A DNA stretch of 61,069 nucleotides. Source: a virus. Taxonomy: Duplodnaviria > Caudoviricetes. Position numbers and translations under genes: made by a program. The notes under the pieces are model-generated. The model ran no database searches. It saw nothing but the letters and a program-made list of their open reading frames with translations, and was not told where the DNA came from. The stretch's first letter is position 1; each line of letters starts with the position of its first letter. The DNA is taken from the IMG/VR virus record IMGVR_UViG_3300035701_000033, positions 1 to 61,069 of that record; one strand, written 5' to 3'. Shown piece by piece: positions 4,275 through 57,372 of this stretch.

Positions 4275-7200
4275 CTATTCAGGTTGTTCAGCATTAGGGT
4301 AAAGCTTTTTAAAATGAGCCTCTTTAGTTTTCAGTATTTTTTCCAATAGAATCCTTTCCGCAGGAGTCGCTTTCTCCATGACCTTGCGTGCTTCATCAAG
4401 GGATAGGCGTTTGAATCCTGACGCTAATGGAGATAGTTTTGCCTCCGATTTAATCCGCTTTGCTGCGACTGTACTTATAATACCAGCTGCCACTGCTTCG
4501 TGCAAGTCATTTTCTGCATCGACGTTTTGCATGCGGAATTCTGAGGTTAATTTGGTCAGCATCTTGCTACGTTCAAATTCAACTGCAGTTTTAGTTGTTT
4601 TTGGCATACGTTCAGTTACGAATTTGCGAATCATTTTTTCCGCGGGTGTCCGATTCAGATCAGAGGGGGCTGGCATGATGCCAATGAAGGGTGCGCCCAT
4701 GGCTAGAGCTGTACCTCCGCGCTCTGCTTCTTTCTGCATACCACGAATCCAGAAAGGCATATACTGTTTAGCTGTGAAACCGACAAGCTGAGATGCCTGA
4801 GCAACAATGTTGTCGCCCTCATGACGAATCTCTGTACCATAGTAGTCTTTGTTCTGGATGATGTCACGACCCATACCAAGAGCAGGATGCAGTTTATGCA
4901 GTAGCGTGGTTCCCGGAGCTTCTGAGTATGCGAGTACGTCCTTCATGTAGGTCGGCAGCATGAAGCGTTCCTCAAACCCACGCTCGTCTACGTTACCGGT
5001 CCTGAATGCAATGAAGTCTCTACCCTCTGGGGCTTCACCGGTAAACAGGGCAGTCAATGCTCCGTTGGCAACTGCAGTGGTCAGCAGCAGTGACAGGGTA
5101 TAAGCAGTACGATCAGACATATTAGGTTTCTCGCCCTTAGCTACATTCCTGATTAGATCAGCCACGTCCTTAGCACCGCCGACGAGTTCGAGGATCGTAC
5201 CACCTGTCCACCCCGGAGCCCTTAGTGCGCCCTGTACCATGTTCTTAGCGACATTGTTCACGAAGAGGCGATCATATACGACCTGTCCCAGACGAGAATC
5301 GACACGGTTCCATATCTCCTGCATTGCTTCCCGGCGTTCTTTGAAGGATGCATTAGGATGTTCATTCATCCAGAAAGAACTCATGTCTGCAAAGACACCG
5401 AACTTCTGCCGGGGTACAAGCCATTCCATCAGAGGGCGAGCCATCTGCTCAATCATGGCGAACGGAGCCCGGACAGCAGCACCGATCTTATTCCCGTTGG
5501 CCCATGCTTCGAACATCTTCTCAGTGGTATGGGTCTGGAAGCGTGTATCCATTCCTTTCCTTGCCCCAGCAAGAACTGCATTCTCTGCGATCATGGGGAT
5601 GTCCATTCCATGAGTAATTCCTGCAGATGTCGGATCTGCCATGGCTGCGAGAACCTTACCACCGATCATCGGGTTACGGATAAACTCAGCCGGGGCTTCA
5701 GCAAGATACTTGACGCCGCTGGCAAAGTCGCCATTGGCTATTGCTTTCAAGCCCAGTGCGCCGTGACTTATGATCGCTTCGAGGGACGTGAATCCTGCAT
5801 GGAACATAGAGCCTACGCCGAGCTGCATTTGGTTCAGGTTGTTAGCTAGAGCCATGTAGCCAGAGAATGCTTTACCTATATACTTATTGTTATATAGGTT
5901 CTGGGAGAGGTAGTTGTTAATTACTTGAGCAACATCTTCCCGGACAGCATATTTATAAGACTTGAAGGAATCGAGAAGTTGAACACCATTGGCGTCTACA
6001 TCAGCCCGTTTGACAGTTCCATAGGTTCCGAGGATATTAAGTTCTCCCGGCTCCATCCCTTCCCCTGCGGGAACCAGACGAGCGAGGCCGTCAGATTCGA
6101 GGGACTGCAGCATCTTATGCGCTGCGATGTACCGATCCATTTCCCCGACCTTCATGAAGAATAGATCCATGGGGTTATTGGATACCAGTTTATGACCAGC
6201 TTCGATACCCTCATAGATATCCCCGAATACCCTTTTCTCTGCAAAGGACTTCCGGGTGTCCAGTGGACGTTTCGATATGGCAGTGCTGATGTCACGCATT
6301 GCATCGTCGGCGCGTTCCCAGTATCTTGGGAAATAAGGGTTCTCCCCTTCGCCGGTTCTGATATCCGTGAGTAGTCCTGTACCAAGTTGCTGGATTGTTT
6401 CTACTCTAGCATCGAACATCTCTTTCATGAAGTCGGCAATCTGCTGACGAGGTGCATCTATCTGAGGCTTCCCACTATCCATACGCGCCATGAAGTCATG
6501 TTGCTCACCTACCGGCATCTTGGCGAAGTATGTATCTGCCAGAGTCTTACCCTGTGAACGAACGAGGTCCATGACTGAAGTAACCGTAGAGACTTCGCCC
6601 TTGATACCTTTCATGATCTTGTCGATCTTGGTTGCAGACTGAAGTTGCTTATTCCACATTTCCCCCAGTACCTGACGGAATTCAGCCTGTGTCTGGAATG
6701 CAGCCTCGGAACGTGCGCCGGGGGCAAAGGCTCTACCTGCTTGGTCAATTGTTTCTCTTACATTCTTAATGGTATTAATGACCTTGGGCTTGACATCATC
6801 ATCAACGAACTTAGACTCCATCACGCTCTTGGCCATATCCTGAATTGCATATTTAGGTGCAGGTTTACCGAGAGAACCAAACATCTCCATGCTTTCTTTC
6901 GTGTATTTTCCATACATAGAATAGCGTTCTTCCATCTCACCCGATGCGAGTTTCTTGAATATGTTCTCATCAGTCATCATGAAAGTATTCTTGATGTTCT
7001 GGAAGAAATCTACAATCTTCTGCCAGTATACTTCAATGACGTTCTTCGGACGGTACTTCGGATTACCTGAGATTTTGTCAATATACGCCTGATATGCATC
7101 GGCCCGAGCTTCCTCGGTTGCATACTTCTTGGCGACGATATCTATCTCATGCCTAGTAAGAACTGAGTACTCAGCCCAATGCCATTTCTCGTGGTCGATG

Positions 7201-34217: not shown

Positions 34218-34760
34218 TTAAAGGTTGATCTGAATATTAACTTGGTTCGCGTTGGACTGTGTATCCTTTGAAACCTGTGGTGTCAGTCCTGCAAATTCTG
34301 CTACCTTTGTCCATGCTGTTATCCGATCCTTGGCAGCTACATGCGTGTTCGTTATGAGCCCAAAGATATCTTCGAGGGTTTCTTCAGCAATCAGTTTCGC
34401 CTTAACTGCAAACGTGACTCCTGACTCCCTGAGTGTCTTGGTATGGATCTGCAGTTCCTGCCTGAATGCTGGTTGTTGAACGATCCGAGCGAACTCGGGC
34501 TCAGATAGTAAATATCTTTCCCGGATCGTGTCTTCGTCCTCTACTCCCAGAGCTACATCAAAGACCATTCTGGGGTTCCACCCTCCCAGTATTGGCTCGG
34601 GACGCAGTGCCAGTTCCTGCGACATATTCTCTTTGGCCTGCCTGTATGCCCCATCTATAGTCGATTGAGCAGAAAGAGTCCGGGCCTTTTCAGGCTCCAG
34701 ACTATCTTCATACAGGTCATCGAACCCGTCTTCGTATGGATCTAAGAGTTCTCTATTCAT
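34218..34760 (-). CDS. Probable terminase small subunit
   Basis: Helical 180-aa ORF at head of late operon ending VNIQINL; assignment by synteny and pattern. Confidence 0.45.
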   Translation of the reverse strand: MNRELLDPYEDGFDDLYEDSLEPEKARTLSAQSTIDGAYRQAKENMSQELALRPEPILGGWNPRMVFDVALGVEDEDTIRERYLLSEPEFARIVQQPAFRQELQIHTKTLRESGVTFAVKAKLIAEETLEDIFGLITNTHVAAKDRITAWTKVAEFAGLTPQVSKDTQSNANQVNIQINL

Positions 34761-38292: not shown

Positions 38293-39470
38293 AAAAACAC
38301 AATCATTAGTAGGCTTCAATATTAGAGCAAAAAAGACTCTAATATTGATACAAATTAATGAGCAAAAAGTATTAGTATTTATGGAATCAGGTACTTTAGG
38401 TGAACGTAACAATATCAAGTATTTACAAGCGAAAATGTATCGCCCAAAAAAGTGTCAAGTTTTAATGTAATTTTAATATAAGAAAAAGTTCTTTGATAAC
38501 TGTAGTCTACGCCATTATTGCTATTTTAATGTGAAGTGAAGTGATATGTAGTTTATAAAAAGCTTACAAAAAAGGCCATTTTCAAAAGAAAAAAGTCGCA
38601 ATACACGATATACATAAGAATGTCCAGAATACCATGGAATCTACTTCTCCAATATGTAACTCTTAATAACGATGAATTGAAATGATGACTTAAAATAAAT
38701 TATATAGACGGAAATTCGCTTAAATCATACTATTCGTAGAATTCAGCATTATTTGCTTTACACTTTTTTATACGATACACGAAAATATGTCTACAAATAC
38801 TATGAACAAGCGTTTTTAGACGTCTCTTGTTTTGGAAATGTATCGCTGTAATTACATACTTTTTAGACGATACAACAAGAAAGCGAGACTTTATGGACAT
38901 CTGGACATACACTGATTTCAAAAGCCAGCGATTATTTTCATTTAGTGTCCCACACATACTTGTCCAGTAATCCCGCAAAAAGGCCAAATATTAAGGTAAC
39001 TTGGACACTCAACTATAACCGATGTATCGCACCAAAGTTACATGACATTTTTGACACAAAACCTACACTAAACTTACATTTATGCATTCTTTTAGTATTC
39101 GTAGACATAATATGTGTCGTTTATGCTACACTTTCGAGGCAAAAGGCTAAAATGTCCTCATGTAACGCTGCCCGATCTTGTTCCAAAAACTTTCATTTTG
39201 GCGTCCTGAATTTCTATGTTTGTATCGCTGAAATGATGTAAAAATGTGCTTCATTATATGGAAACATGCATGTATCTCTCGAAAAAGTGTAAAGTAAATT
39301 TCATCATTTTCATTGTAACCGTAGACAAACTTAAAAATAATATGTCTACAAATACTAATAAAAAGTTTGACAAACCCAAAATATAGGCGTAGGATTATAG
39401 TTAAGGATAAGGAAAAAACGGTTATAAGGCAACACTAAACTTTAACCATTTTTAATATTCGAGGTGTATT
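38293..39470. other. AT-rich non-coding region with dispersed repeats (origin candidate)
   Basis: No credible ORF; 19-mer AATATGTCTACAAATACTA at 38784 and 39339 plus inverted 17/19 copy at 39093; TGTATCGC four times. Confidence 0.5.
39367..39395 (+). promoter_or_regulatory. Sigma70-like promoter
   Basis: TTGACA-17nt-TAGGAT. Confidence 0.55.
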
Positions 39471-41746: not shown

Positions 41747-42352
41747 ATGAAACTTGAAGAATTGAAAGAAGTATTACGACTGCACAAACTATGGCTCGAA
41801 GGTAATCCAGAAGGTAAATGCGCAGACTTGTCATATGCGGACTTTTCGGGCGCGGACTTGTCAGACGCGGACTTTTCGGGCGCGATCTTGAGAGGCGCGA
41901 ACTTGACAGGCGCGAACTTGTCGCGGGTGAATTTGACAGGCGCGAACTTGAGAGACGCGATCTTGAGAGACGCGATCTTGTCGCGGGTGAATTTGACAGG
42001 CGCGAACTTGACAGGCGCGAACTTGAGAGACGCGATCTTGTCGCGGGTGAATTTGACAGACGCGAACTTGACAGACGCGAACTTGAGAGACGCGAACTTG
42101 ACAGACGCGAACTTGACACGCGCGGACTTGACAGGCGCGAACTTGACAGGCGCGAACTTGACAGACGCGAACTTGTCATATGCGGACTTGTCATATGCGA
42201 ACTTATCGCACGTGAACTTGTCATATGCGGACTTTTCGGGCGCGATCTTGACAGGCGCGAACTTGACAAACGCGAACTTGACACGCGCGAACTTAGATTA
42301 TGCTGCATGGCCTTTAAGGTGTAGTAGCGTAAATGTAAAAGGGGGAGCTTAA
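41747..42352 (+). CDS. Pentapeptide-repeat protein 2 (C-terminally truncated duplicate of copy 3)
   Basis: Same N-terminal leader; ends at duplication junction. Confidence 0.85.
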   Translation: MKLEELKEVLRLHKLWLEGNPEGKCADLSYADFSGADLSDADFSGAILRGANLTGANLSRVNLTGANLRDAILRDAILSRVNLTGANLTGANLRDAILSRVNLTDANLTDANLRDANLTDANLTRADLTGANLTGANLTDANLSYADLSYANLSHVNLSYADFSGAILTGANLTNANLTRANLDYAAWPLRCSSVNVKGGA

Positions 42353-42353
42353 A

Positions 42354-42956
42354 ATGAAACTTGAAGAATTGAAAGAAGTATTACGACTGCACAAACTATG
42401 GCTCGAAGGTAATCCAGAAGGTAAATGCGCAGACTTGTCATATGCAGACTTGTCATATGCGGACTTTTCGGGCGCGGACTTGGCATATGCGGACTTGGCA
42501 TATGCGGACTTGGCATATGCGGACTTTTCGGGCGCGATCTTGTCAGACGCGGACTTGTCAGACGCGAACTTGTCATATGCGGACTTTTCGGGCGCGAACT
42601 TGACAAACGCGGACTTGACAGGCGCGATCTTGACAGGCGCGATCTTGAGAGACGCGATCTTGACAGGCGCGAACTTGTCATATGCGGACTTTTCGGGCGC
42701 GAACTTGACAAACGCGGACTTGACAGGCGCGGACTTGACAGGCGCGAACTTGTCAGACGCGAACTTAGATTATGCTGCATGGCCTTTAAGGTGTAGTAGC
42801 GTAAATGTAAAAGTGGATAATCAAATAGCAGCGCAATTATTGTTTCATGCGTTCGCAGTTGCAGGAATAAATCCTACGGCTGAACAGATAAAATATATCC
42901 GAGCGTTTAGGCGTTTTGACGAGTGTGGCGGAGCAGATAGACTACTTAAAAAATAA
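42354..42956 (+). CDS. Pentapeptide-repeat protein 3
   Basis: Repeats then LDYAAWPLRC...AAQLLFHA C-terminal cap. Confidence 0.9.
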   Translation: MKLEELKEVLRLHKLWLEGNPEGKCADLSYADLSYADFSGADLAYADLAYADLAYADFSGAILSDADLSDANLSYADFSGANLTNADLTGAILTGAILRDAILTGANLSYADFSGANLTNADLTGADLTGANLSDANLDYAAWPLRCSSVNVKVDNQIAAQLLFHAFAVAGINPTAEQIKYIRAFRRFDECGGADRLLKK

Positions 42957-43296
42957 AGGGATTTAAAATGGAGTCTCATGAGAAATTATGGAGATTGAGA
43001 AAGGAGAAGGTTATGTGGATGGAGAATGTAACATTGGTTTATGAGCAAAGAGCTGAAGCAGAAAAGAAAAAGCTGGCTGTAATGCAAACAGAAATGGCCT
43101 CTGCCATAGATGCACTACATCAGGTCGGTAAGGAACTGCGGGATCATCCCGAAGCGATCGAGCAATGCATCAAGGTCTTACAGGAGGGATAAATGGGGCT
43201 ATTTATTTTTGTGATAATAGTTTGGGCATTATTAAAGTTGATGGAAAAACGGCATAAATAAAAGATCTTTCTTTAAAGAGAGAAAAGGAGCTTAAA

Positions 43297-44001
43297 ATGA
43301 AACCTGAAGAATTGAAAGAAGTATTACGACTGCACAAACTATGGCTCGAAGGTAATCCAGAAGGTAAATGCGCGGACTTTTCGGGCGCGAACTTGACAGA
43401 CGCGAACTTGACAGACGCGAACTTGACAGACGCGAACTTGAGAGACGCGAACTTGACAGACGCGAACTTGACAGACGCGAACTTGAGAGACGCGAACTTG
43501 ACAGGCGCGAACTTGACAGACGCGAACTTGTCATATGCGGACTTGTCATATGCGAACTTATCGCACGTGAACTTCACAGACGCGAACTTGTCGCGGGTGA
43601 ATTTGACAGGCGCGAACTTGACAGGCGCGAACTTGACATGCGCGAACTTGAGAGACGCGAACTTGACAGGCGCGATCTTGAGAGACGCGATCTTGACAGG
43701 CGCGAACTTGAGAGACGCGAACTTGTCGCGGGTGAATTTGACAGACGCGAACTTGTCATATGCGGACTTGTCATATGCGAACTTATCGCACGTGAACTTC
43801 ACAGACGCGAACTTGTCGCGGGTGAATTTGACATGTGCGAACTTGACAGGCGCGAACTTCACAGACGCGAACTTTGCAGGCGCGGACTTGTCATATGCGG
43901 ACTTGACACGCGCGAACTTGTCAGACGCGGACTTGTCAGACGCGAACTTGTCGCGGGTGAATTTGACATGTGCGAACTTGACAGGCGTTATAACTAAATG
44001 A
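43297..44001 (+). CDS. Pentapeptide-repeat protein 4 (repeats only)
   Basis: Leader identical to copy 1, about 40 pentapeptides. Confidence 0.9.
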   Translation: MKPEELKEVLRLHKLWLEGNPEGKCADFSGANLTDANLTDANLTDANLRDANLTDANLTDANLRDANLTGANLTDANLSYADLSYANLSHVNFTDANLSRVNLTGANLTGANLTCANLRDANLTGAILRDAILTGANLRDANLSRVNLTDANLSYADLSYANLSHVNFTDANLSRVNLTCANLTGANFTDANFAGADLSYADLTRANLSDADLSDANLSRVNLTCANLTGVITK

Positions 44002-44102
44002 TACCTCTATTAATATTATTTTCAACCCTATAAATGCGGATAATTCCTAATAGAACTTAGCTTTTTTGCTGTTATATTATTTTAAATAATTAAGGAACTG
44101 TA

Positions 44103-44699
44103 ATGTCCAGCTATGATCCAGATGATTGCATGAATGATGAAGAACGAGATCTTTATGACCAAAAGTACCAACTTAGAAAATATAAGCCAATACAGGTTGA
44201 AGTAGAAGTCCTAGAAGAAAGAATCGTTATACGTCCATGCAGCCGCCGGGTGAGTGTAAAGTTTAGAGAATTTAGGCTATGGGTATTAGGCAAGATAAAA
44301 GAAGGGCGTTCGGTAGCTGATATATACAACCTGATTGAACAGAACCGGAAATTGTACCACGATTATATAGAACACGGTATACCTCCGCCAGAAGGGATAA
44401 CAATTGATGAAATGATATTAAGTTGTGGGAAGTCATATCAGGTAGTTAGATATTGGGTTAGGAAGATAAGTGGTAAAATAGATGTTCCGGTATCCATGAA
44501 TAAGGCTGGTAGTAAGCCAAATCAGTTCGCCCGAGATTATGTAGCAGCATTCGGAGGGGTAAAATCGGCAGAACAGATGCATCAAGAGCTTGGAATATCA
44601 AAAGCCGCTGTTTATAAATATCAGACGTTGGCAGGGATACCGGCAAAAAGAGAGAGACAAAAGAAAGTTGTTGACACTCGGCATTTGGACACTGTATAG
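44103..44699 (+). CDS. HTH-containing hypothetical protein
   Basis: C-terminal SAEQMHQELGISKAAVYKY helix-turn-helix. Confidence 0.55.
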   Translation: MSSYDPDDCMNDEERDLYDQKYQLRKYKPIQVEVEVLEERIVIRPCSRRVSVKFREFRLWVLGKIKEGRSVADIYNLIEQNRKLYHDYIEHGIPPPEGITIDEMILSCGKSYQVVRYWVRKISGKIDVPVSMNKAGSKPNQFARDYVAAFGGVKSAEQMHQELGISKAAVYKYQTLAGIPAKRERQKKVVDTRHLDTV

Positions 44700-46534: not shown

Positions 46535-47399
46535 GATCCAAGAATATGCTGATCGCATTTATTAAAACCGATGGAAGAGTAGTAGTGGTATTAATGTCTG
46601 TATTAGGGCTATAGCCTATGCCCACTATCCTAAAAATATGCGCCAATGGGCAGCAGACGAGATACTTCTGGCACTGGTACGGAGACAATATGGACAGGCT
46701 CAGGAATAAATTTGAAGAGCGTCTTAGACGACAGAATCTACGCCCCAACAGTCAAGAGTGGATCATAGAAATACAAGATTATGATTTTCAAAAACGAACA
46801 ATGGAAAGGACAATAAAAAATGAATTGCACAAACTGTAAACATATAATAACATGCAAAAAATGTATGTGGTGTAGATGGGAAGGATCAGACATCTGTGAT
46901 GATTGCAGTTCCAACGACGGCGAATGTCGGTTTCAAGAAGGAGGCGTACAATGAGATGTGAAGACTGTCCAAACTTTGTTGGATGTCGAGCATGTATAAT
47001 ATGTGAACATAGAGTCGAGGCATATTATTCTTCTATTTGTAAAGAATGTATGTCTATGCTTGGGGCTTGTAACTTTAAGGAGCGTAAATTATGAAATGCA
47101 AAGAGTGCGAAAAATATCATCAGCCTTGCTGGCTTTGCATTAATTGCAAACATTTTATGGATAAGAACTGGCAACGCTGTATATCTTGCATGAAAAGTAC
47201 AGATATATGCGTCTGGGAGGAAAAGAAATGAGCGATGACAAGCTTGTTGCTGGAATTCCAGCAAAGTTTCAGAACAAGGCGGAACGGGCAAAGTTTGTAC
47301 TTGATTTTTATGGAGCTTTACTTTGTGAGGGAAATGATTTTGTATCCTCGGGTGAACTTCTGAAGGATCTCAAAGAATTTTATGAGGAACAGCAAATTA

Positions 47400-48720: not shown

Positions 48721-49800
48721 ATGCGACTCTTAACCATGGACTTTGAAACATTTTATGGAACTGGATACACTCTCAGTTCAATGACGAACGAGGAATATAT
48801 CCGGGACCCAAGATTTGAAATCATCATGTGTAGCTTCAAGATGGATGAGAATCCATGCTTCTGGGTTCCGGGTCCACAGGTCTGGTCGGTACTAGCCAAG
48901 ATACCGTGGCATGAGACTGCGGTGATTAGTCATCATTCACATTTTGACATGGCGATTCTTAACTGGATATATGGATATCGCCCTGCTTTTATTCTCGACA
49001 CGCTCCCGATGTTCCGGGCTCTATTTCCTGCAGAACGCGCATCGTTAAAAAATATGTGCGAGGTTCTGGGAATAGGAGCTAAAGGAACTGAGGTTGAGAA
49101 CGCGAGAGGTAAGCACTACAGGGATTTCTCCCCGCAGGAGTTAGCTCGGTATGGGTCATACTGCGTAAATGACACAGAGAGGACAAGAGAAGCGTTCGAC
49201 ATCATGAAGGTTGGTTATCCTCTTTCCGAGTTACAACTTAACGATATGATTACTCGACTGTTTACAGAACCAATGGTCGAATTAGATCGAGATCTACTTA
49301 TTCTTATGCGGGATGATGAGATCGAAGAGAAGCGTAGACTCATGGAGAAACTGAATGTTGATCGGTCTGTCATATCCTCGAATCCTCAGTTCGCTGCATT
49401 GTTGCTAGAGTGCGGGGTAGACCCGCCGAAGAAGATCAGTCCAGCATGGCGTAAGGCACATCCAGACGAAGACCCCGGTGAGGAACCTGTTGGACTTCTC
49501 CCGGACGGTATGAAGTCATGGGCCTATGCTCTGGCTAAGAACGACGAAGCTGCCAAGGAACTGGCCGCGAGTGAAGACGTGCTGATAAGTGCGCTTATGG
49601 AAGCGCGGTTCGGAATTAAGAGTACTATCAAACAGACACGATCCCAGCGGTTCATAGGCATAGCAGAACGAGGAACCTTCCCCATCTACCTGAAAGCCTA
49701 TGCTGCCCATACCGGACGGCTTGGTGGCGGGGATAAATCGAATGCTCAGAACTTAACCAAGAAGTGTAGTTACTGCGATGGAAATGGAGAGGTGCTATGA
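48721..49800 (+). CDS. polA: DNA polymerase family A, N-terminal part (3'-5' exonuclease and thumb)
   Basis: Exo motifs MDFET, HSHFD, YCVND; HTGRLGGGDKSNAQNL; ends CSYCDGNG. Confidence 0.9.
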   Translation: MRLLTMDFETFYGTGYTLSSMTNEEYIRDPRFEIIMCSFKMDENPCFWVPGPQVWSVLAKIPWHETAVISHHSHFDMAILNWIYGYRPAFILDTLPMFRALFPAERASLKNMCEVLGIGAKGTEVENARGKHYRDFSPQELARYGSYCVNDTERTREAFDIMKVGYPLSELQLNDMITRLFTEPMVELDRDLLILMRDDEIEEKRRLMEKLNVDRSVISSNPQFAALLLECGVDPPKKISPAWRKAHPDEDPGEEPVGLLPDGMKSWAYALAKNDEAAKELAASEDVLISALMEARFGIKSTIKQTRSQRFIGIAERGTFPIYLKAYAAHTGRLGGGDKSNAQNLTKKCSYCDGNGEVL

Positions 49801-50039
49801 AATACAGAGTGATTGAGATTGTAAAAAGATCAACGGTTGCACTTGATCGTTATTTTCAGATTGAACGACGGTATTCGTTTTGGCCATGGTGGTGTGTGAT
49901 GCGCAATGTAATTGGCCCAATAAGTTTTTATTCAAAGGACGCAGCAATCGGGTATATTAACCGTGAGATTCAGAATAAAGAATACGTAGAAGAGCACAAA
50001 AAAACACTGACAGAGACAAGGACTATTCATGAAGTGTGA
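49797..50039 (+). CDS. Hypothetical protein inserted between polymerase halves
   Basis: GGAGAGGTG RBS, ATGA overlap upstream, 11-nt overlap downstream; MKYRV...FQIERR..FWPWW. Confidence 0.7.
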   Translation: MKYRVIEIVKRSTVALDRYFQIERRYSFWPWWCVMRNVIGPISFYSKDAAIGYINREIQNKEYVEEHKKTLTETRTIHEV

Positions 50040-51021
50040 TCGTTGTGACGGTACAGGTATCTCAGCACTCAGACGTGCGATTATGGCACCTCCCGGCCAC
50101 GTCATAGTGGTACGCGACTTGTCGCAGATCGAAGCGCGGGTAAACTTCTGGATAGCTGAACAGCAGAGCATGGTCGATACCTATCGCCGGGGGGAGGATA
50201 CCTATTGTAAGATGGCCTCGACTATATTCGGTCGGCCTATTATAAAGAAAGAACATCCTCGGGAAAGATTTCTTGGAAAAACTACGGTCCTCGGTTGCGG
50301 GTACGGGCTCGGCTGGAAGAAGTTCCAAGGCATGTTACGAATAGGCATGTTGGGTGAGAAGGGTTTGATCCTCGGAGAAGAGATCTCTCAGGCACTGGGC
50401 GTATATCCAGAGCAGTTCCTTGAACGGCATAGAAAATATGTGGACGAGTCAATGCCACCGAACATTCCATATCCTATCCATGCCACGCACTGCGCGAATG
50501 CAGAGAGAATAATCAAGACCTTCCGGGATAACAATCCCATGTTGATTCAGTTCTGGAAGACCTGTCAGGAAGCACTCGGACATATACTGGCCGGGGATTA
50601 TGGCTGGAAGTTCGGGAATGGCGGCATCATCGAAACTTGTGCAGAAGGATTGCGATTGCCTAACGGCATGATAATGCGGTACGTCGAACTGAGGACCAAG
50701 AAAGAAGGAAAATACAATGAGTTCAGTATCCTGCGGGATAGAAAGAAAGGACAAAGGGAGAAGTTGTACGGCGGAAAAGTCGATGAGAATATCGTACAAG
50801 CGTTGGCACGAATCGTTATCACCGACGACATGCTCAGGATGCGCAAAGAGGGGATTCATGTCGTGCATCAAGTGCATGATGAGATCTTGGCTGTTTGTCC
50901 TGAGAATGAGGCTAAAGCTACGTATGAGCAGATGGGATTGGTAATGTCTAAAGCCCCGTCGTGGGCTCCAGACTTGCCCCTCGGATCAGAGGGTGGATGG
51001 GACAGGCGTTATATAAAATAA
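50029..51021 (+). CDS. polA: DNA polymerase family A, C-terminal catalytic part
   Basis: Motif A DLSQIEAR, motif B RFLGKTTVLGCGYG, ENIVQ, motif C VHDE; starts MKCDRCDGTG; AAGGA RBS. Confidence 0.92.
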   Translation: MKCDRCDGTGISALRRAIMAPPGHVIVVRDLSQIEARVNFWIAEQQSMVDTYRRGEDTYCKMASTIFGRPIIKKEHPRERFLGKTTVLGCGYGLGWKKFQGMLRIGMLGEKGLILGEEISQALGVYPEQFLERHRKYVDESMPPNIPYPIHATHCANAERIIKTFRDNNPMLIQFWKTCQEALGHILAGDYGWKFGNGGIIETCAEGLRLPNGMIMRYVELRTKKEGKYNEFSILRDRKKGQREKLYGGKVDENIVQALARIVITDDMLRMRKEGIHVVHQVHDEILAVCPENEAKATYEQMGLVMSKAPSWAPDLPLGSEGGWDRRYIK

Positions 51022-51073: not shown

Positions 51074-52195
51074 ATGGCAACTATATTTGAAGGGTTTGCC
51101 CCAGAAGTACCTCGGACATGGGTATATATTCACCAAATGCCATTTCCGAAATTACTTACTACTAATGAGGCATTATGCAATCTTATTGGAATATTATATA
51201 CTGGTCCTGATAGGCGTTTTGACTATCATGATGAAATCGGGATGCGTAGTCTATGGTCTGCATGGCAGAAAGATATCCAGAAAGCAGAAGCAATGGGTAG
51301 TAAGTACAAGGTTCCAGATGTGGCAATGGACTACTTCCAAAAGACTAAACATCTCTCACGTCCGCCGAGATGTAGCGATACAAACATTCAGCAGACCGGA
51401 CCTATCGATGAATTATTGGTGGTTGATATTGAAGCATTTGTAAAGAAACATGCAGAGAATTCAGTTCCTGCGGTTATACTCGAAGAAAAGATTCAATCCG
51501 TTCCTGTTGTACCGGGGTTTAAACCTCCTAAATTTTCATGGTCTTATACTTCACTGGTTAATTTTGAAACTTGCCCATTGTCCTTTGCTGAACAGAGATA
51601 TTACAAGACAATCAAATTCATGGAAACCCCAGAGATTAAAGATGGCAATGTAGTGCATATTGGGTTGGAGAATTATCTAAAGTCCAAAGTTCGGATTGAT
51701 CGGATCACTGATTATACAAAATTTGCAGACGCTATTATCGCTGCATCTGAGGGCGGAGAACTACTGATCGAACAGGAATTGTGTATTAACGAAGGAATGC
51801 AAATGACAGGTTGGTTCGCTCCAGATGCATGGGGTCGAGCCAAATTGGACGTAGCGATTATCAAGGATGGAGTAGCCAAGATATATGATTGGAAAACTGG
51901 TAAAGAGAAGAAAGATGACGACCAGTTGGAAATCTTCTGCATCTTCTTGGCATTAGCCCGGAGAGATGTCCACACTTTTATCTCCAGATATATCTGGTTG
52001 AAGAATGGCAATGTATCTGCGCCTATTACCCTAACAAGAGCAGATCTATTGCCAGCGATAAAGACTCTGCTCGGACGTATTGCCAGATGCCGAGAAGCAT
52101 GGGATCATCAACTTTGGATGGCCAAGACTTCTGGACTCTGTAAGAAATATTGCGATGTCATGACCTGCGTACATAATGGTAAAAGAGAATGTTAA
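51074..52195 (+). CDS. PD-(D/E)XK Cas4/RecB-like exonuclease with N-terminal extension
   Basis: WSYTSL..FETCP, H, KLDV, DWKTGK and C-terminal CxxxCxxxxC cluster. Confidence 0.8.
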   Translation: MATIFEGFAPEVPRTWVYIHQMPFPKLLTTNEALCNLIGILYTGPDRRFDYHDEIGMRSLWSAWQKDIQKAEAMGSKYKVPDVAMDYFQKTKHLSRPPRCSDTNIQQTGPIDELLVVDIEAFVKKHAENSVPAVILEEKIQSVPVVPGFKPPKFSWSYTSLVNFETCPLSFAEQRYYKTIKFMETPEIKDGNVVHIGLENYLKSKVRIDRITDYTKFADAIIAASEGGELLIEQELCINEGMQMTGWFAPDAWGRAKLDVAIIKDGVAKIYDWKTGKEKKDDDQLEIFCIFLALARRDVHTFISRYIWLKNGNVSAPITLTRADLLPAIKTLLGRIARCREAWDHQLWMAKTSGLCKKYCDVMTCVHNGKREC

Positions 52196-52807
52196 TTACC
52201 GAGCGCACTCAATCGCGCATCTTGAAGAAAATAACAGCAACGGAGTTTACTTATAATGCTGTAGAGATGGAAGAACTGCATGCATGGTGTGTTGCAATGT
52301 ATACAGTAAATAGTCCCCCGTGTCTTGAATGTCTGGAGGCAATATTTGCTTATTGTGCAGACACAGGATTTCAATGCCCTACGTTTTCCAAATATATAGA
52401 AGGAGAAAAAAATGTATTACTAGTATAAATTGGTTAATATTTATTAATAGTTTTTGATAACCCATGGAATTAGGGAGTTCGTTATGTTCGCCAAACCCAG
52501 AGATGAATATTGCGCTGATTGTTATAGGATGCAAGAAAAGATAATTTATAAGACAAAAACGTATGAACCAATAAACCTAGATCAAATTAATCTATTGTTA
52601 TATGAAGAAGAATTGAATGAAAAGTTATATTTATTAGCTTTAAGCAAAGTCAGAAAGGGATAGCAAGTGGTTTAGATAAACAATTGTTTCACTTGCGCCT
52701 TGGAAGGAGGTGGTTTTATGTCTTTAGAATTATTTTACTTACTAGTTGTAATGCTGCCCATAGCAATTATATTTGTACTTACGGTTATAGTATTTTTGAA
52801 ACTTTCA

Positions 52808-52867
52808 AAATAACGGCTTGAGTAGCACCAGCATATTTCTGGCTGATGCATATGATGATTATATTTC
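52808..52867. mobile_element. attC-like site 0 (degenerate)
   Basis: TAACGG...GCACCAGC/GCTGATGC stem...ATGATTATAT. Confidence 0.55.
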
Positions 52868-52881
52868 GTAGGAGGGTGGCC

Positions 52882-53226
52882 ATGTCTATAATTGTAGAAA
52901 AATGCACCAAGTGTAAGCGAGAGGTCAGTATATTTGAATTATCAGAGCGAGGTCATTCGTGGCTGTGTCCCATTTGCACCGTTGCCCACGATGCACAGGT
53001 AGAGAGCAATGAAAGTGTTTGCCGCGAGTATATAGATTCAGATATTGAAACTCTTCTCCTGAAACTGATAGCAGAAAATAAACGTCTTAAAGAGGCATTG
53101 CAAAAGATCGCCCAAGGCGTTGTTTACACTCAGCCAATGGACATAGTTTCAGAGCGCATGCTGATAGCAGGGAACAACGTCAGTCTGGTAATGCAACATA
53201 TTGCCAAAGTAGCATTAGAAATATAA
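52882..53226 (+). CDS. Cassette 1 gene, Zn-ribbon hypothetical protein
   Basis: AGGAGG RBS, CxxC...CxxC, stop TAA is part of TAAC. Confidence 0.7.
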   Translation: MSIIVEKCTKCKREVSIFELSERGHSWLCPICTVAHDAQVESNESVCREYIDSDIETLLLKLIAENKRLKEALQKIAQGVVYTQPMDIVSERMLIAGNNVSLVMQHIAKVALEI

Positions 53227-53342
53227 CGGCCAAAGGGTACAGTAGCCTGTCGCTGGTTTCGGGGATTCTCCCCATGCCGCAATGAACGATTTTGACAACG
53301 ATTGCGTTTCAGCCTGAATAGGCTGGAATAAGCTGGTTAGAT
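53221..53342. mobile_element. attC-like site 1 (long, branched)
   Basis: ATATAAC...GTTAGAT with nested stems AGCCTGT/ATAGGCT, GCTGG/TCAGC, GGGGA/TCCCC, CGCAAT/ATTGCG. Confidence 0.65.
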
Positions 53343-53359
53343 TACGAAAGGATAGTTTT

Positions 53360-53698
53360 ATGTCTGATGCAAAATTTACAGAATGGCTGGAATCATTTAC
53401 CGAGTCGGACGAGTACAAGGATGATTCATTCCATTGGAGTCAGATGGCAAGAGCCGCTTACGATCAGGGTTGGCATGATGGCGATGAATTCCAACTCGAC
53501 TGTCACCAAGACCACGAAAAATATAAACTGGAACGTCTGCGCGATCAGTTTGCGATGGCTGCATTAACAACAGTCATAAATAAAATTGGTTGGCAAAGAT
53601 TAGGTCATAATATGTATTCAAATTTTGAAGAGGTATCAAACACTTCTTATTTGATTGCAGCCGCAATGATGTCAGCAAGAACTAAGCAATCAGAGTAA
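53360..53698 (+). CDS. Cassette 2 gene, phage-type hypothetical protein
   Basis: LRDQFAMAAL...SYLIAAAMMSAR motif common in small phage proteins. Confidence 0.7.
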   Translation: MSDAKFTEWLESFTESDEYKDDSFHWSQMARAAYDQGWHDGDEFQLDCHQDHEKYKLERLRDQFAMAALTTVINKIGWQRLGHNMYSNFEEVSNTSYLIAAAMMSARTKQSE

Positions 53699-53756
53699 TC
53701 TAACGGGCCGGGAAATCACCCGCTCGCTTTTGGCGGGTGCATTTATCTGGTTAGCA
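53698..53756. mobile_element. attC-like site 2 (59 nt)
   Basis: ATCTAAC...AAATCACCCGC/GCGGGTG-C-ATTT...GTTAGCA: RYYYAAC/GTTRR boxes, hairpin with one extrahelical base. Confidence 0.8.
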
Positions 53757-53777
53757 ATTTTTTCGGAGGATCACGGG

Positions 53778-54002
53778 ATGACAGTAGCTCAGTTAATAAA
53801 ACAACTCCAAAAACTGCCCAAAAATGCACAGGTCGGCGTTAGTCACGGCGACAACTCAGTCCATGAAATTGCTGGATGGGTTGAGTCAGCTGTGTACCAC
53901 AAAAAATCTGATTATCAGGGTGATGTTGATAAACTCACAGACCATTTTGACAGAGACGCATACGCAGGTCATCCAGATTCGTGGGTAACTCTGCATTGCT
54001 AA
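53778..54002 (+). CDS. Cassette 3 gene, phage-type hypothetical protein
   Basis: GGAGG RBS, MTVAQLIKQLQKLP start, stop TAA is part of GCTAAC. Confidence 0.7.
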   Translation: MTVAQLIKQLQKLPKNAQVGVSHGDNSVHEIAGWVESAVYHKKSDYQGDVDKLTDHFDRDAYAGHPDSWVTLHC

Positions 54003-54034
54003 CAACTGGTATAAACCACTGAAAGGAAAGAACT

Positions 54035-54370
54035 ATGATTCTCGAAAGGAAGGTCAAACAGGCGGTTAAAGAGATGTTGGAAGAGCTAGGATGTATTAGT
54101 GCAGGTCAGGCAGTATTAGCTACAGCCAATAATACAGGTTGGTTTTTCATGCCGGTATCCAATGGTATGGGGGTTCACGGCATCCCAGATTTCCTTGGGG
54201 AATATAAAGGTAGGTTCTTTGCCATTGAAACAAAGACTCCCGGCAATAACCCAACGCCACTACAACAACATCAAATCCATGCCATCCATATTTCTGGAGG
54301 TCTGGCAGTAGTTGTTCGGGACAGATGTGATATTGAAGTACTAAACATAACTCTGCGAAAAGGATTATAA
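54035..54370 (+). CDS. VRR-NUC domain nuclease (resolvase-like)
   Basis: E..V...GIPDF...FFAIETK...TPLQ motif. Confidence 0.85.
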   Translation: MILERKVKQAVKEMLEELGCISAGQAVLATANNTGWFFMPVSNGMGVHGIPDFLGEYKGRFFAIETKTPGNNPTPLQQHQIHAIHISGGLAVVVRDRCDIEVLNITLRKGL

Positions 54371-54920
54371 CTGTGGAAGTAATTCTTGTAATGTTCGGGT
54401 TCACCAAAAAGATGAAGATCGACGCCAAAGAACCGCCTCCTTATATCAAAACAAAATTGCAGAACAATGCTCCAGTAGTGAGCAACTTTATAATCAAATG
54501 TAATTCAGATGGCTCTGCACTATATCCAGAACGTATGAATGTAGTATTCGAATACCAAGGATTAGTAGCAGGGATACCTTTTTACATCGCCGATTTTTCA
54601 TTCGACGCAGATTCAGAAAAAGGAGAAAATATTTATGTCTATAATTGAGAAAAATGAAAAGTTACATGCAGACATTTCAAAATTTGTGGCTGATGCTATC
54701 GTTGCCAAACTCGCCCAGCTCGGGGTGGATACTATCACCAACAGCCCCGAAGTATTTACCAAGAGCATTATAGACAAACAGATACGCATGGACAATCTGA
54801 TGTTCCCAGATACACCCAAAAAGGATGGTATCTACTTTACCAAGAATGGTCTGTTCGTTGGCTTCATCCATGTTCCTCGGGAAGAAGGGATCAGTATGAT
54901 TCCCGATCTGATGGAAGACC

Positions 54921-55178
54921 ATGCTTGATATTGACACCATCAATGGGCTGTTTGTCTTTGGTGGTGCAAGCTATGCATGGGCTAATGCTTTCAAACTATG
55001 GAGGGATCAACAGGTAAAAGGTATCTTTGTTTCTTCCACAATTTTCATGACACTCTGGACATTCTGGAGTATAATATACTATTATAAACTTGAACAGTGG
55101 TTTAGTCTTGGATGCAATATCTTTATGGCCATAGCTGATTGTTTCTGGGTCTGGATGGCCATGAAAAAAAGAGGCTAA
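54921..55178 (+). CDS. PQ-loop/SemiSWEET-like 3-TM membrane protein
   Basis: Three hydrophobic helices, KLWRDQQVKGI loop, W..Y...N pattern. Confidence 0.5.
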   Translation: MLDIDTINGLFVFGGASYAWANAFKLWRDQQVKGIFVSSTIFMTLWTFWSIIYYYKLEQWFSLGCNIFMAIADCFWVWMAMKKRG

Positions 55179-55340
55179 TATGTGGGATGTAGGGTTTAAA
55201 GTATTTTTAATGCACTGGGAAATTATCTGCTTTGTTCTATTCGTATGTTGGATATTTAGGGGAACCAAATGATTTGCATTGTAACAGGTAAGCAAGTACC
55301 AGAGCATTGTGGTGGATGTTTAGGTAGTGACGAAGATAAA

Positions 55341-55519
55341 TAGCTCAGCGGCCCCACGTAGGGGAGAATCCGTCATAGGAGAACTTGTTCGGTGTAGTGA
55401 TACGATGCGGACAAGACTAGCCAAATGGGTATGATAAGCTGGCGGACAAGACGTAAAACGAGGCGACATCACAAACGCGCCTATCCTATGAATAGTAGGT
55501 ATAAATCCTACCTGAGTTA
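55341..55519 (+). ncRNA. Candidate structured tRNA-like RNA
   Basis: Closing stem TAGCTCAG/CTGAGTTA, T-arm-like GTAGG-TATAAAT-CCTAC, long-range TCATAGGA/TCCTATGA, internal hairpins; intergenic. Confidence 0.55.
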
Positions 55520-55539
55520 CTAAAAATAGCGGAGGAACG

Positions 55540-57090
55540 ATGTATCCAGTTCGAATAATCAACGGATACTTTGTATTCCAAGCATTAGAGTATGTGATGT
55601 CGATCTTTCCACAGCACAAGTACGCCGATAATTTCGGAGCAGTACCTGCGAATATAGAGAACGCTCTACTCTTACGCAACATGGGATATGAAGCGCAGAG
55701 TCCTATAAGATTCAACTATGATTGGCCTATACGTCCGGGGCGACAGCCACAATGGTATCAGGTAGACACTGCGGAGTTTGCCACATTAAACAAACGGGCG
55801 TTCATCCTTAATGCCATGCGCACAAGGAAAACCAATTCAGTTCTATGGGCTGCAGACTTCTTGCGTAAACAAAAGATGATCCACAAAACATTAATCGCTG
55901 CACCTTTATCTACACTAGAACGGGTATGGGGTGATACTCTTTTTATTGACTATCACGGTTCTAAGTTTAAAGTACTATATGGCAGTGCTGCAAAACGGAA
56001 GGACTTATTAAATTCCGAAGCCGATTATTATATCATCAATCACGATGGAATAGAAGTTATTCTCAAAGAATTGCAGGAAAGAAAAGATATCAACCATATA
56101 ATTATTGACGAGGTAGCGATCTATAGGAACTCTCAGATGCGTACAGGTAGCGATAAATTGACACGGTATGGATGTATGAAGACTCTAATTCGTCCAGATC
56201 ATTGGGTATGGGGGCTGACAGGAACACCGACCCCAAACGCACCGACAGATGCATATGGTCAGGCCAAACTTATCAAGCCAGAAAACTTCGGTGGATCATT
56301 CACTAAGTTCAGGGAGTTGACGATGCAGCAGTATGGCCCATATCGTTGGTTGCCACGGCATGATGCAGCTGATACAGTAGCACGGATCTTATTTCCCGCC
56401 ATTCGTTTTTCCAGAACTGTCGTAACCGATATGGAACCAACGATTATTGAACGTCAAGCAGAACTATCAGTTACCCAAAAGCAGCACTATGATCGACTGA
56501 AGAAAGATTCAGTCACTATGATGGGCGAGACTCAGGTGACAGCAGTGAATGCTGCGGTCATGGTGTCCAAACTCATACAGACAGCATGTGGTGTTGTCTA
56601 TGGCGTTGATGGCTCCTTAGCAGAACTGGACTTCGGCCCTCGGTTAAAGGTGTTGGAAGAACTGATTGAAGAGAATGAAGAAAAGGTACTGGTTTTCGTT
56701 CCGTTTACTGGAGTACTTGATGCCCTTGCTCGGGAATTGCGCAAACGCTGGACTGTAGAAATCGTTGATGGCGGGGTTCCAGCTGCCAAGAGGAATAGAA
56801 TATTCAGTGCATTCCAGAATGATTCCGAACCACATATCATTCTCGCCCACCCCGGTTGCATGGCTCATGGACTTGAACTTACTAAGGCGTCTCTAATAAT
56901 ATGGTACGCCCCGGTATCTAAGAACGAATTGCATGAACAAGCCAATGCCCGTATTGATGGCGGTGGGCAGACGGTGAAGATGGATATAGCCTACATCTCA
57001 GCCATACCGGAAGAACGAAAAGCCTACGATGTATTGAATGGGAAATGTACGTGGCAGCAAATTGTTTTAGATATGATAAAAAATTATTGA
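55540..57090 (+). CDS. SNF2-like superfamily 2 helicase
   Basis: MRTRKT, APLS, IIDE, LTGTP, HGLEL, QANAR motifs. Confidence 0.88.
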   Translation: MYPVRIINGYFVFQALEYVMSIFPQHKYADNFGAVPANIENALLLRNMGYEAQSPIRFNYDWPIRPGRQPQWYQVDTAEFATLNKRAFILNAMRTRKTNSVLWAADFLRKQKMIHKTLIAAPLSTLERVWGDTLFIDYHGSKFKVLYGSAAKRKDLLNSEADYYIINHDGIEVILKELQERKDINHIIIDEVAIYRNSQMRTGSDKLTRYGCMKTLIRPDHWVWGLTGTPTPNAPTDAYGQAKLIKPENFGGSFTKFRELTMQQYGPYRWLPRHDAADTVARILFPAIRFSRTVVTDMEPTIIERQAELSVTQKQHYDRLKKDSVTMMGETQVTAVNAAVMVSKLIQTACGVVYGVDGSLAELDFGPRLKVLEELIEENEEKVLVFVPFTGVLDALARELRKRWTVEIVDGGVPAAKRNRIFSAFQNDSEPHIILAHPGCMAHGLELTKASLIIWYAPVSKNELHEQANARIDGGGQTVKMDIAYISAIPEERKAYDVLNGKCTWQQIVLDMIKNY

Positions 57091-57115
57091 CAACTACGAT
57101 ACATGCTGGTAAGGT
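57087..57115 (+). promoter_or_regulatory. Sigma70-like promoter
   Basis: TTGACA-17nt-TAAGGT. Confidence 0.5.
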
Positions 57116-57372
57116 AATAAATAACGGAGGAAGCAGATGAGAGTAATTGCCTCAGTAAATGGCTGGTTTAAGGTAGTGCATGATGTTCTAGAGAGTTGTT
57201 TGACTACTGGAGTTCTATATATAAGGCTCATACACCCATTGAATATACTGGTTACAAACTCAAACGCGCCAGTGGATACCATTGCTGGATTAGATATTAA
57301 ACTTCGGTATTACGGTAATAAGAATTCAGCAGGTATACCTATATTTGAGTATAGATAACGGAGGAATTAAAC

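Follow-up and report, generated by a model that had tools for sequence, protein, structure and literature searches.

Positions 52808-54034 of the phage genome analyzed here possibly hold degenerate integron-type cassettes or their relics, a reading that we adopt tentatively and to which we give a little under an even chance. The stretch comprises three integron-cassette-like modules, which are more likely decayed than still usable. Each module is a small gene bracketed by its own complementary ends, and site-specific exchange in the past, inside the short boxes at those ends, accounts best for this bracket rule. That the elements belong to the attC family is not established: the defining co-inheritance of a gene with its site failed in the one other phage contig used to compare g3. 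The window, meaning the whole stretch of DNA under analysis, is an entire IMG/VR virus record, 61,069 bp in length (CheckV 100% complete).

The modules fall within a block of replication and recombination genes, among several small ORFs that lie between an exonuclease gene and a VRR-NUC gene. The parts are as follows:

48721-51021: split DNA polymerase, in two ORFs (359 + 330 aa)
51074-52195, plus strand: PD-(D/E)XK exonuclease, conserved backbone upstream of the variable stretch
52700-52813, plus strand: g0, a 37-aa hydrophobic ORF, unbracketed
52808-52867, unstranded: IG0 element, with left box AAATAAC at 52808-52814 and right box GATTATATTTC at 52857-52867
52882-53226, plus strand: g1, 114 aa, with arms at 52859-52867 and 53218-53226
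53227-53359, unstranded: IG1, a composite spacer
53293-53342, minus strand: IG1b, a compact attC-like unit with a TGACAAC box and a GTTAGAT box
53360-53698, plus strand: g2, 112 aa, with 10-nt arms at 53336-53345 and 53695-53704
53698-53756, minus strand: IG2 element, with an ATCTAAC box and a GTTAGCA box
53778-54002, plus strand: g3, 74 aa, with arms at 53750-53758 and 53995-54003
54003-54034, unstranded: IG3, the 32-nt junction to the VRR-NUC gene, with a TAAC box and no hairpin unit
54035-54370, plus strand: VRR-NUC-type nuclease, conserved backbone 3' of the array (phrog_93, E 4e-13)
55540-57090: SNF2 helicase

The array occupies a variable slot, as shown by a distant syntenic relative (exonuclease 30% identical) in which the small genes separating the exonuclease from the VRR-NUC gene are quite unlike those of the window. 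Exonuclease-based relatives amount to just three loci, at 30% identity and with other accessory genes. The synteny of the VRR-NUC gene is kept in relative L004, in which the polymerase is a single 686-aa ORF versus two in the window, where an 80-aa ORF (49797-50039) bridges the halves. The array region has zero blastn matches among 50,697 phage records. Its GC content (0.437) equals the genome mean (0.436), so it bears no compositional mark of foreign origin. Two sediment sequencing runs yielded short contigs, none spanning the array, so that the lack of recombination joints in them is uninformative; those from the second run (X2, a metagenome from another study) are identical to backbone genes over window positions 51331-57168 and leave the array uncovered.

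The products of the three genes differ in how well they are known. The g1 product has Cys pairs followed by a coiled-coil-like tail, and we found neither a family match nor a relative of it in viral contigs. Both g2 and g3 match phage protein families. Specifically, the C-terminal half of g2 matches phage families of unknown function (phrog_20565, E 5.8e-8), and its domain occurs in 27 loci at 34-48% identity. For g3, 5.8 billion proteins contain seven homologs besides the window's own protein, one of them encoded by the phage contig G001. A metagenome scan and a family-alignment scan of viral contigs each returned G001 alone.

Elsewhere in the window, identical 22-nt matches lie 1.4 kb apart (42542-42563 and 43920-43941) within a run of four ORFs of about 200 aa (41747-44699) that are probably tandem paralogs. 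Two long AT-rich non-coding stretches (38293-38944 and 39242-39470) have the 18-nt word ATATGTCTACAAATACTA in common and may be an origin or control region. An 847-nt gap in the crude gene call (46535-47381) holds tandem, very short, Cys-rich reading frames.

All the motifs on which the original prediction was built exist at their positions. TAACGG occurs on the plus strand at 52811, 53224, and 53701. The word CTGGTTAG is present at 53333 and at 53747 and has no third exact copy in the window; in the first element, GATGATTA takes its place at the end, and the right box carries ATT in place of the expected GTT. Stop codons do fall in or beside the TAAC boxes. Specifically, the TAA stops of g0, g1, and g3 are the TAA of the box, that of g0 (52811-52813) lying within the first box, AAATAAC, while the g2 stop lies 5 nt upstream of its box. 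The complementary R-box consensus is RYYYAAC. The g2 pair ATCTAAC/GTTAGAT fits it fully, and the g3 pair TGCTAAC/GTTAGCA and the g1 box ATATAAC agree at AAC/GTT only. The R box itself is given as GTTRRRY by Qi et al. 2023 (PMC9892861). The longest words common to the spacers (11-20 nt, 75-91% identity) are centered on the boxes, and apart from these the spacers have just the 6-8 nt boxes in common.

The gene ends support a cassette-like organization. As was claimed, each gene is bracketed by its own complementary ends, in perfect inverted repeats of 9 nt for g1 (52859-52867/53218-53226, with A instead of the expected G at the tenth position), 10 nt for g2, and 9 nt for g3, compared with pairing at 5-6 of 7 positions between the ends of one spacer. 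We scanned 82 genes for inverted repeats linking the 60 nt that lead up to a gene's start codon with the surroundings of its stop codon. Four of the 82 have a perfect one of at least 9 nt, and g1, g2, and g3 are three of these four; the other is a minus-strand gene at 34218-34760. Among mismatched gene pairs, repeats of at least 9 nt occurred in 36 of 6642 and of 10 nt in 5 of 6642, which gives a null rate of 0.0054 per gene, or about 0.44 bracketed genes expected among 82. Thus, with three neighbors among the four, the brackets exceed chance, and the cassette hallmark of own-end complementarity is statistically real. Of the three brackets, that of g1 is weakest because TTATATTT is a common word here: the g1 arm is AT-rich and recurs nearby.

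On this reading, the joints would be the work of an integron-type tyrosine recombinase from the host that acted on single strands in their folded form, and the sites would since have degenerated. On the minus strand, each gene would be followed by its own hairpin site, giving the pairs g3 with IG2, g2 with IG1, and g1 with IG0. Each site would run from one box through a gap of about 5 nt, a short stem, a longer stem, the loop, and another 7-9 nt to the second box. If exchange took place inside these boxes, at TAA/C on the coding strand (the slash marks the crossover), every module would be left with complementary ends, as observed, and removal of the three modules at TAA/C would place g0 against the IG3 junction. 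Consistent with the claim that the phage encodes no IntI, a PF00589 search found zero tyrosine recombinases in the 61-kb record, and thus no intI for a complete integron; the same search matched 14 of 14 control genomes. That a host integron integrase is used to shuffle the cassettes, as originally proposed, is something we can only infer.

Covariance models did not bear out the attC reading, yielding no significant match in the window. To build them, we collected homologs of intI1, taking the plasmid R46 gene to be the intI1 query, aligned 15, and used the alignment to fetch 79 class 1 integron loci. Model R1 was built from 14 seed sites chosen by box and fold criteria, and it recovers 90 sites (89 on the cassette strand) in 68 of the loci. 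Model R2 was built from those 90 sites, and R3 from seven sites in G001. R3 recovers real attC sites at 22-63 bits, with 25 of 26 matches on the cassette strand. The three models are stand-ins for those of IntegronFinder, and the E-values quoted here are rough. R1 has zero matches in the array region, in thirty other phage loci (222 kb), and in the g2-domain loci. With R2, the minus strand of IG2 scores 5.0 bits (E 2.8 in a 3-kb search), which makes it fourth of 11 matches, all at noise level. Across the whole window, R3 scores IG1b at 11.0 bits (E 2.2) and IG2 at 10.8 bits (E 2.6), fifth and sixth of 12. In 1.4 kb, the corresponding R3 E-values are 0.051 and 0.059, tied with a spurious 21-nt match inside g2. 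IG1b is the best model match within the array, and IG0 is matched by none of the three models. Rfam, at E up to 10, returned no attC family and three chance snoRNA or lncRNA matches. A structural pattern with a background of about one match per 61 kb per strand hit the minus strand at IG1b in its strict form and at IG0 in its relaxed form (minus only), and missed IG2. The window scores of 5-11 bits lie far under the 20-bit cut of Qi et al. and, as judged with our stand-in models, the window elements are not attC sites by this customary test.

What signal exists points to the minus strand, the reverse of the original orientation. The only box-to-box matches that span a spacer, IG2 (R2 and R3) and IG1b (R3), are on the minus strand. 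Together, the weak model matches and the IG2 bulge make minus the attC-like top strand, and the earlier orientation is probably reversed if the elements are attC-like at all. On the same proviso, we infer that the crossover is at TAA/C on the coding strand and that each gene's own site is the spacer upstream. The flanks following TAAC rank 10, 34, and 107 of 375 when compared with real bottom-strand flanks and 247-249 when compared with real top-strand flanks, a modest likeness in sequence that is suggestive only. Genes antisense to the attC top strand, as this orientation would have them, are unlike usual cassettes, which counts against the integron reading.

To call every spacer a hairpin was generous. 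Only the cores of IG2 (z -2.94) and IG1b (z -3.18) are notable beside shuffled sequences. When IG0 is folded as single-stranded DNA, shuffled versions do just as well (z +1.06 over the full spacer, -0.63 over its core); its weak stem has 8 pairs with one mismatch (52824-52831/52841-52848). IG1 folds into three small hairpins rather than one (z -2.0) and comprises, in order, a short box-to-box unit (53221-53264), a hairpin (53261-53273), and IG1b. The IG1b stem has 6 pairs (53310-53315/53320-53325), and in the minimum-energy fold a G-T pair replaces the bulge. The IG2 stem (53713-53723/53733-53744) contains a single unpaired C at 53740, in the 3' arm of the plus strand, the arm used by real attC sites. 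The second stem and bulge of real attC sites are missing from IG0, IG1b, and IG2 alike.

A second phage bears on the cassette reading in both directions. The unrelated phage contig G001 (IMGVR_UViG_3300029288_000295, 46 kb, of which locus L032 is part) encodes a g3 copy 72% identical to that of the window, preceded by a different upstream gene and a TAACGG ... CTGGTTAGC spacer. The two phages have just four proteins in common. DNA homology over g3 runs from CTGGTTAGC, containing the GTTAGC box, to GCTAAC; these limits are the bracket arms. In this one related copy of a module, the limits do fall on the boxes, as the original prediction anticipated. The G001 bracket contains one uncompensated mismatch. 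A cassette should carry its own attC, and in this respect the prediction fails, for neither hairpin flanking g3 is common to both phages: no homology is seen between the inside of IG2 and that of the spacer preceding g3 in G001 (P 0.25), nor between the sequences 3' of g3 (P 0.34). The exchanged unit is leader plus gene, box to box.

G001 itself possesses seven significant R2 attC matches (19.3-37.8 bits), all opposite the gene strand, the coding strand being fixed by a methyltransferase gene and by g3:

L113 7859-9880: attC sites
L113 19570-19703: attC sites
L114 526-631: attC sites

In a run of five sites at 7.9-9.9 kb, the R boxes complement the preceding site at 7/7, 7/7, 7/7, and 6/7 positions. 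These matches, the R-box complementarity, and the recovery of real attC sites by R3 establish that G001 carries a genuine CALIN (a cluster of attC sites without an integrase), whose attC top strand is the one opposite the coding strand. The contig lacks a tyrosine recombinase. Several gene starts and ribosome-binding sites in G001 fall inside attC sites, and one cassette-like unit encodes an ORF (L113 9168-9800) that is DNA methyltransferase-like by its N-terminal motif. A near-identical leader occurs at two gene junctions, L032 4452-4479 and 6108-6135, in which one variable base separates TAACGG from CTTGCGGAGGAAAC and another separates CTTGCGGAGGAAAC from ATG; the leader at 6108-6135 sits in an attC match whose other half is within the next ORF. 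In both phages, the outermost element of the array ends in the 10-nt word TGATTATATT (window 52856-52865, L032 6733-6742), which has ATT where GTT is expected. The common word may be chance or an array-edge mark.

The same observations can be read at the level of RNA. Specifically, the three genes could be ordinary, moron-like accessory genes whose spacers act in the transcript: the hairpins would be terminators, stabilizers, or processing sites, each left arm would pair with its gene's own stop region to tune translation, and the modules would be transferred, with breakpoints at gene borders, by ordinary recombination of the illegitimate or short-homology kind. The gap between each left arm and the Shine-Dalgarno sequence that follows it is 0-7 nt, and the IG2 stem is the top site in a terminator-like scan. 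These two features make an RNA-level role possible, although a sigma-70-like promoter scan found no site in any of the three spacers. The failure of the attC models, the native composition of the array, the phage families matched by g2 and g3, and the g3 block that the two phages have in common, leader plus gene without hairpins, also suit such accessory genes. However, the IG0 and IG1 stems have no T tract after them, 9-10 nt of pairing over a distance of 240-350 nt is a weak basis for RNA control, and the single difference between the arms of the g3 copies is uncompensated. Nor would RNA function account for the AAC/GTT boxes or for own ends pairing better than the ends of a spacer. We regard this account, the main rival, as somewhat unlikely.

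We consider it quite unlikely that the brackets reflect chance plus sequence bias and that the spacers have no common function. The boxes alone are not enriched in the window: TAACGG has 13 matches versus 19.8 expected, and CTGGTTAG, allowing one mismatch, has 30 versus 39.2. The copies of TAACGG at 57122 and 57356 are no more than a stop codon with a ribosome-binding site after it. A bracket scan relaxed to 8-nt arms has no power, since random sequence yields brackets and chains in numbers equal to those of the window. The recurring, AT-rich g1 arm and the modest likeness of the flanks to real attC sites also fit coincidence. Against it stand three adjacent genes with arms of at least 9 nt where fewer than one bracketed gene is expected in all, and g3 homology limits in G001 that coincide with the arms. 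Three further candidates were discarded: CTGGTTAG as a promoter (two exact copies, no enrichment), inverted ends of a transposon type (target duplication is absent), and Xer/dif sites (the 11-6-11 layout is absent).

It is very doubtful that some other hairpin-directed recombination system, phage- or host-encoded and with a Xer-type or HUH-type single-strand enzyme as candidate, swaps the box-to-box modules: such a system would account for the hairpin staying in place, given a g3 unit exchanged box to box without one and sites that fail the attC models, but neither the window nor G001 contains a tyrosine recombinase, none of the proteins common to the two phages is a recombinase, and neither target duplication nor known end motifs are visible.

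For the integron-type reading, then, the brackets, the lack of a phage integrase, and the g3 limits held, and the models, probably the gene orientation, and the co-inheritance of the hairpin did not. Comparison with known systems divides similarly. Analogous to class 1 cassettes (plasmid R46, L033), the array has AAC/GTT boxes, own-end complementarity, stops inside the box, and, in IG2, the box-spacer-bulged-stem geometry. Unlike them, it has no significant model score, one stem with at most one bulge, a degenerate IG0 box, a hairpin not co-inherited with g3, a probably inverted gene orientation, and no attI or integrase. In T4-type phages, PeSL (promoter-early stem-loop) cassettes are built around long, mutually homologous repeats. 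Like these, the window places spacer hairpins beside small genes in a plastic region, and module shuffling has been proposed for PeSL; unlike these, its spacers are not long mutual repeats, the longest common words being 11-20 nt. The morons of lambdoid phages are single accessory genes inserted between backbone genes, each with its own promoter upstream and terminator downstream. As with morons, a syntenic distant relative has different genes at the same place. Here, however, no spacer has a promoter-like site and only the IG2 stem is terminator-like, and the bracket rule is not known from morons.

The closest precedent comes from phages themselves. The original prediction regarded integron elements as rare or absent in phages; rare they are, but not absent. 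Qi et al. 2023 (PMC9892861) report integron parts in 21 of 10,705 phage genomes, including 17 CALINs; the sites were accepted by IntegronFinder or at a 20-bit model threshold, and IntI1 recombined five of six tested attC sites from virulent phages. Those CALINs resemble the window in having no integron integrase and small accessory genes between box-flanked hairpins, and G001 in having a methyltransferase cassette. They differ from the window in score, its sites reaching just 5-11 bits, and a possible second difference is that the genes of G001, and probably those of the window, are antisense to the attC top strand. Cassettes can also insert at genomic attG, simple G/WT sites, as shown in E. 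coli chromosomes, not phages, in a preprint (bioRxiv 10.1101/2022.09.11.507474). Such insertion is a possible route for a cassette into a phage backbone, and the outer joints here are G/TT- and G/AT-like.

The general idea of phage cassettes is thus already published, and the window would be at most a divergent, sub-threshold variant. We nonetheless raise a broader possibility, itself unlikely: some phages could keep their own, very divergent attC-like sites, in which the recombining (bottom) strand is the coding strand, the stop codon forms the crossover TAA/C, and the site resides in the leader of the next gene. Host integron integrases could then swap single genes between unrelated phages, in arrays that current attC models miss. 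If the sites are not real, the window is a warning that AAC/GTT boxes and end complementarity can mimic cassettes. If they are real, the antisense placement of the genes, plain in G001 and suggested in the window, needs explaining, phage cassette arrays are commoner than model-based screens report, and unrelated phages can exchange genes via host integron machinery.
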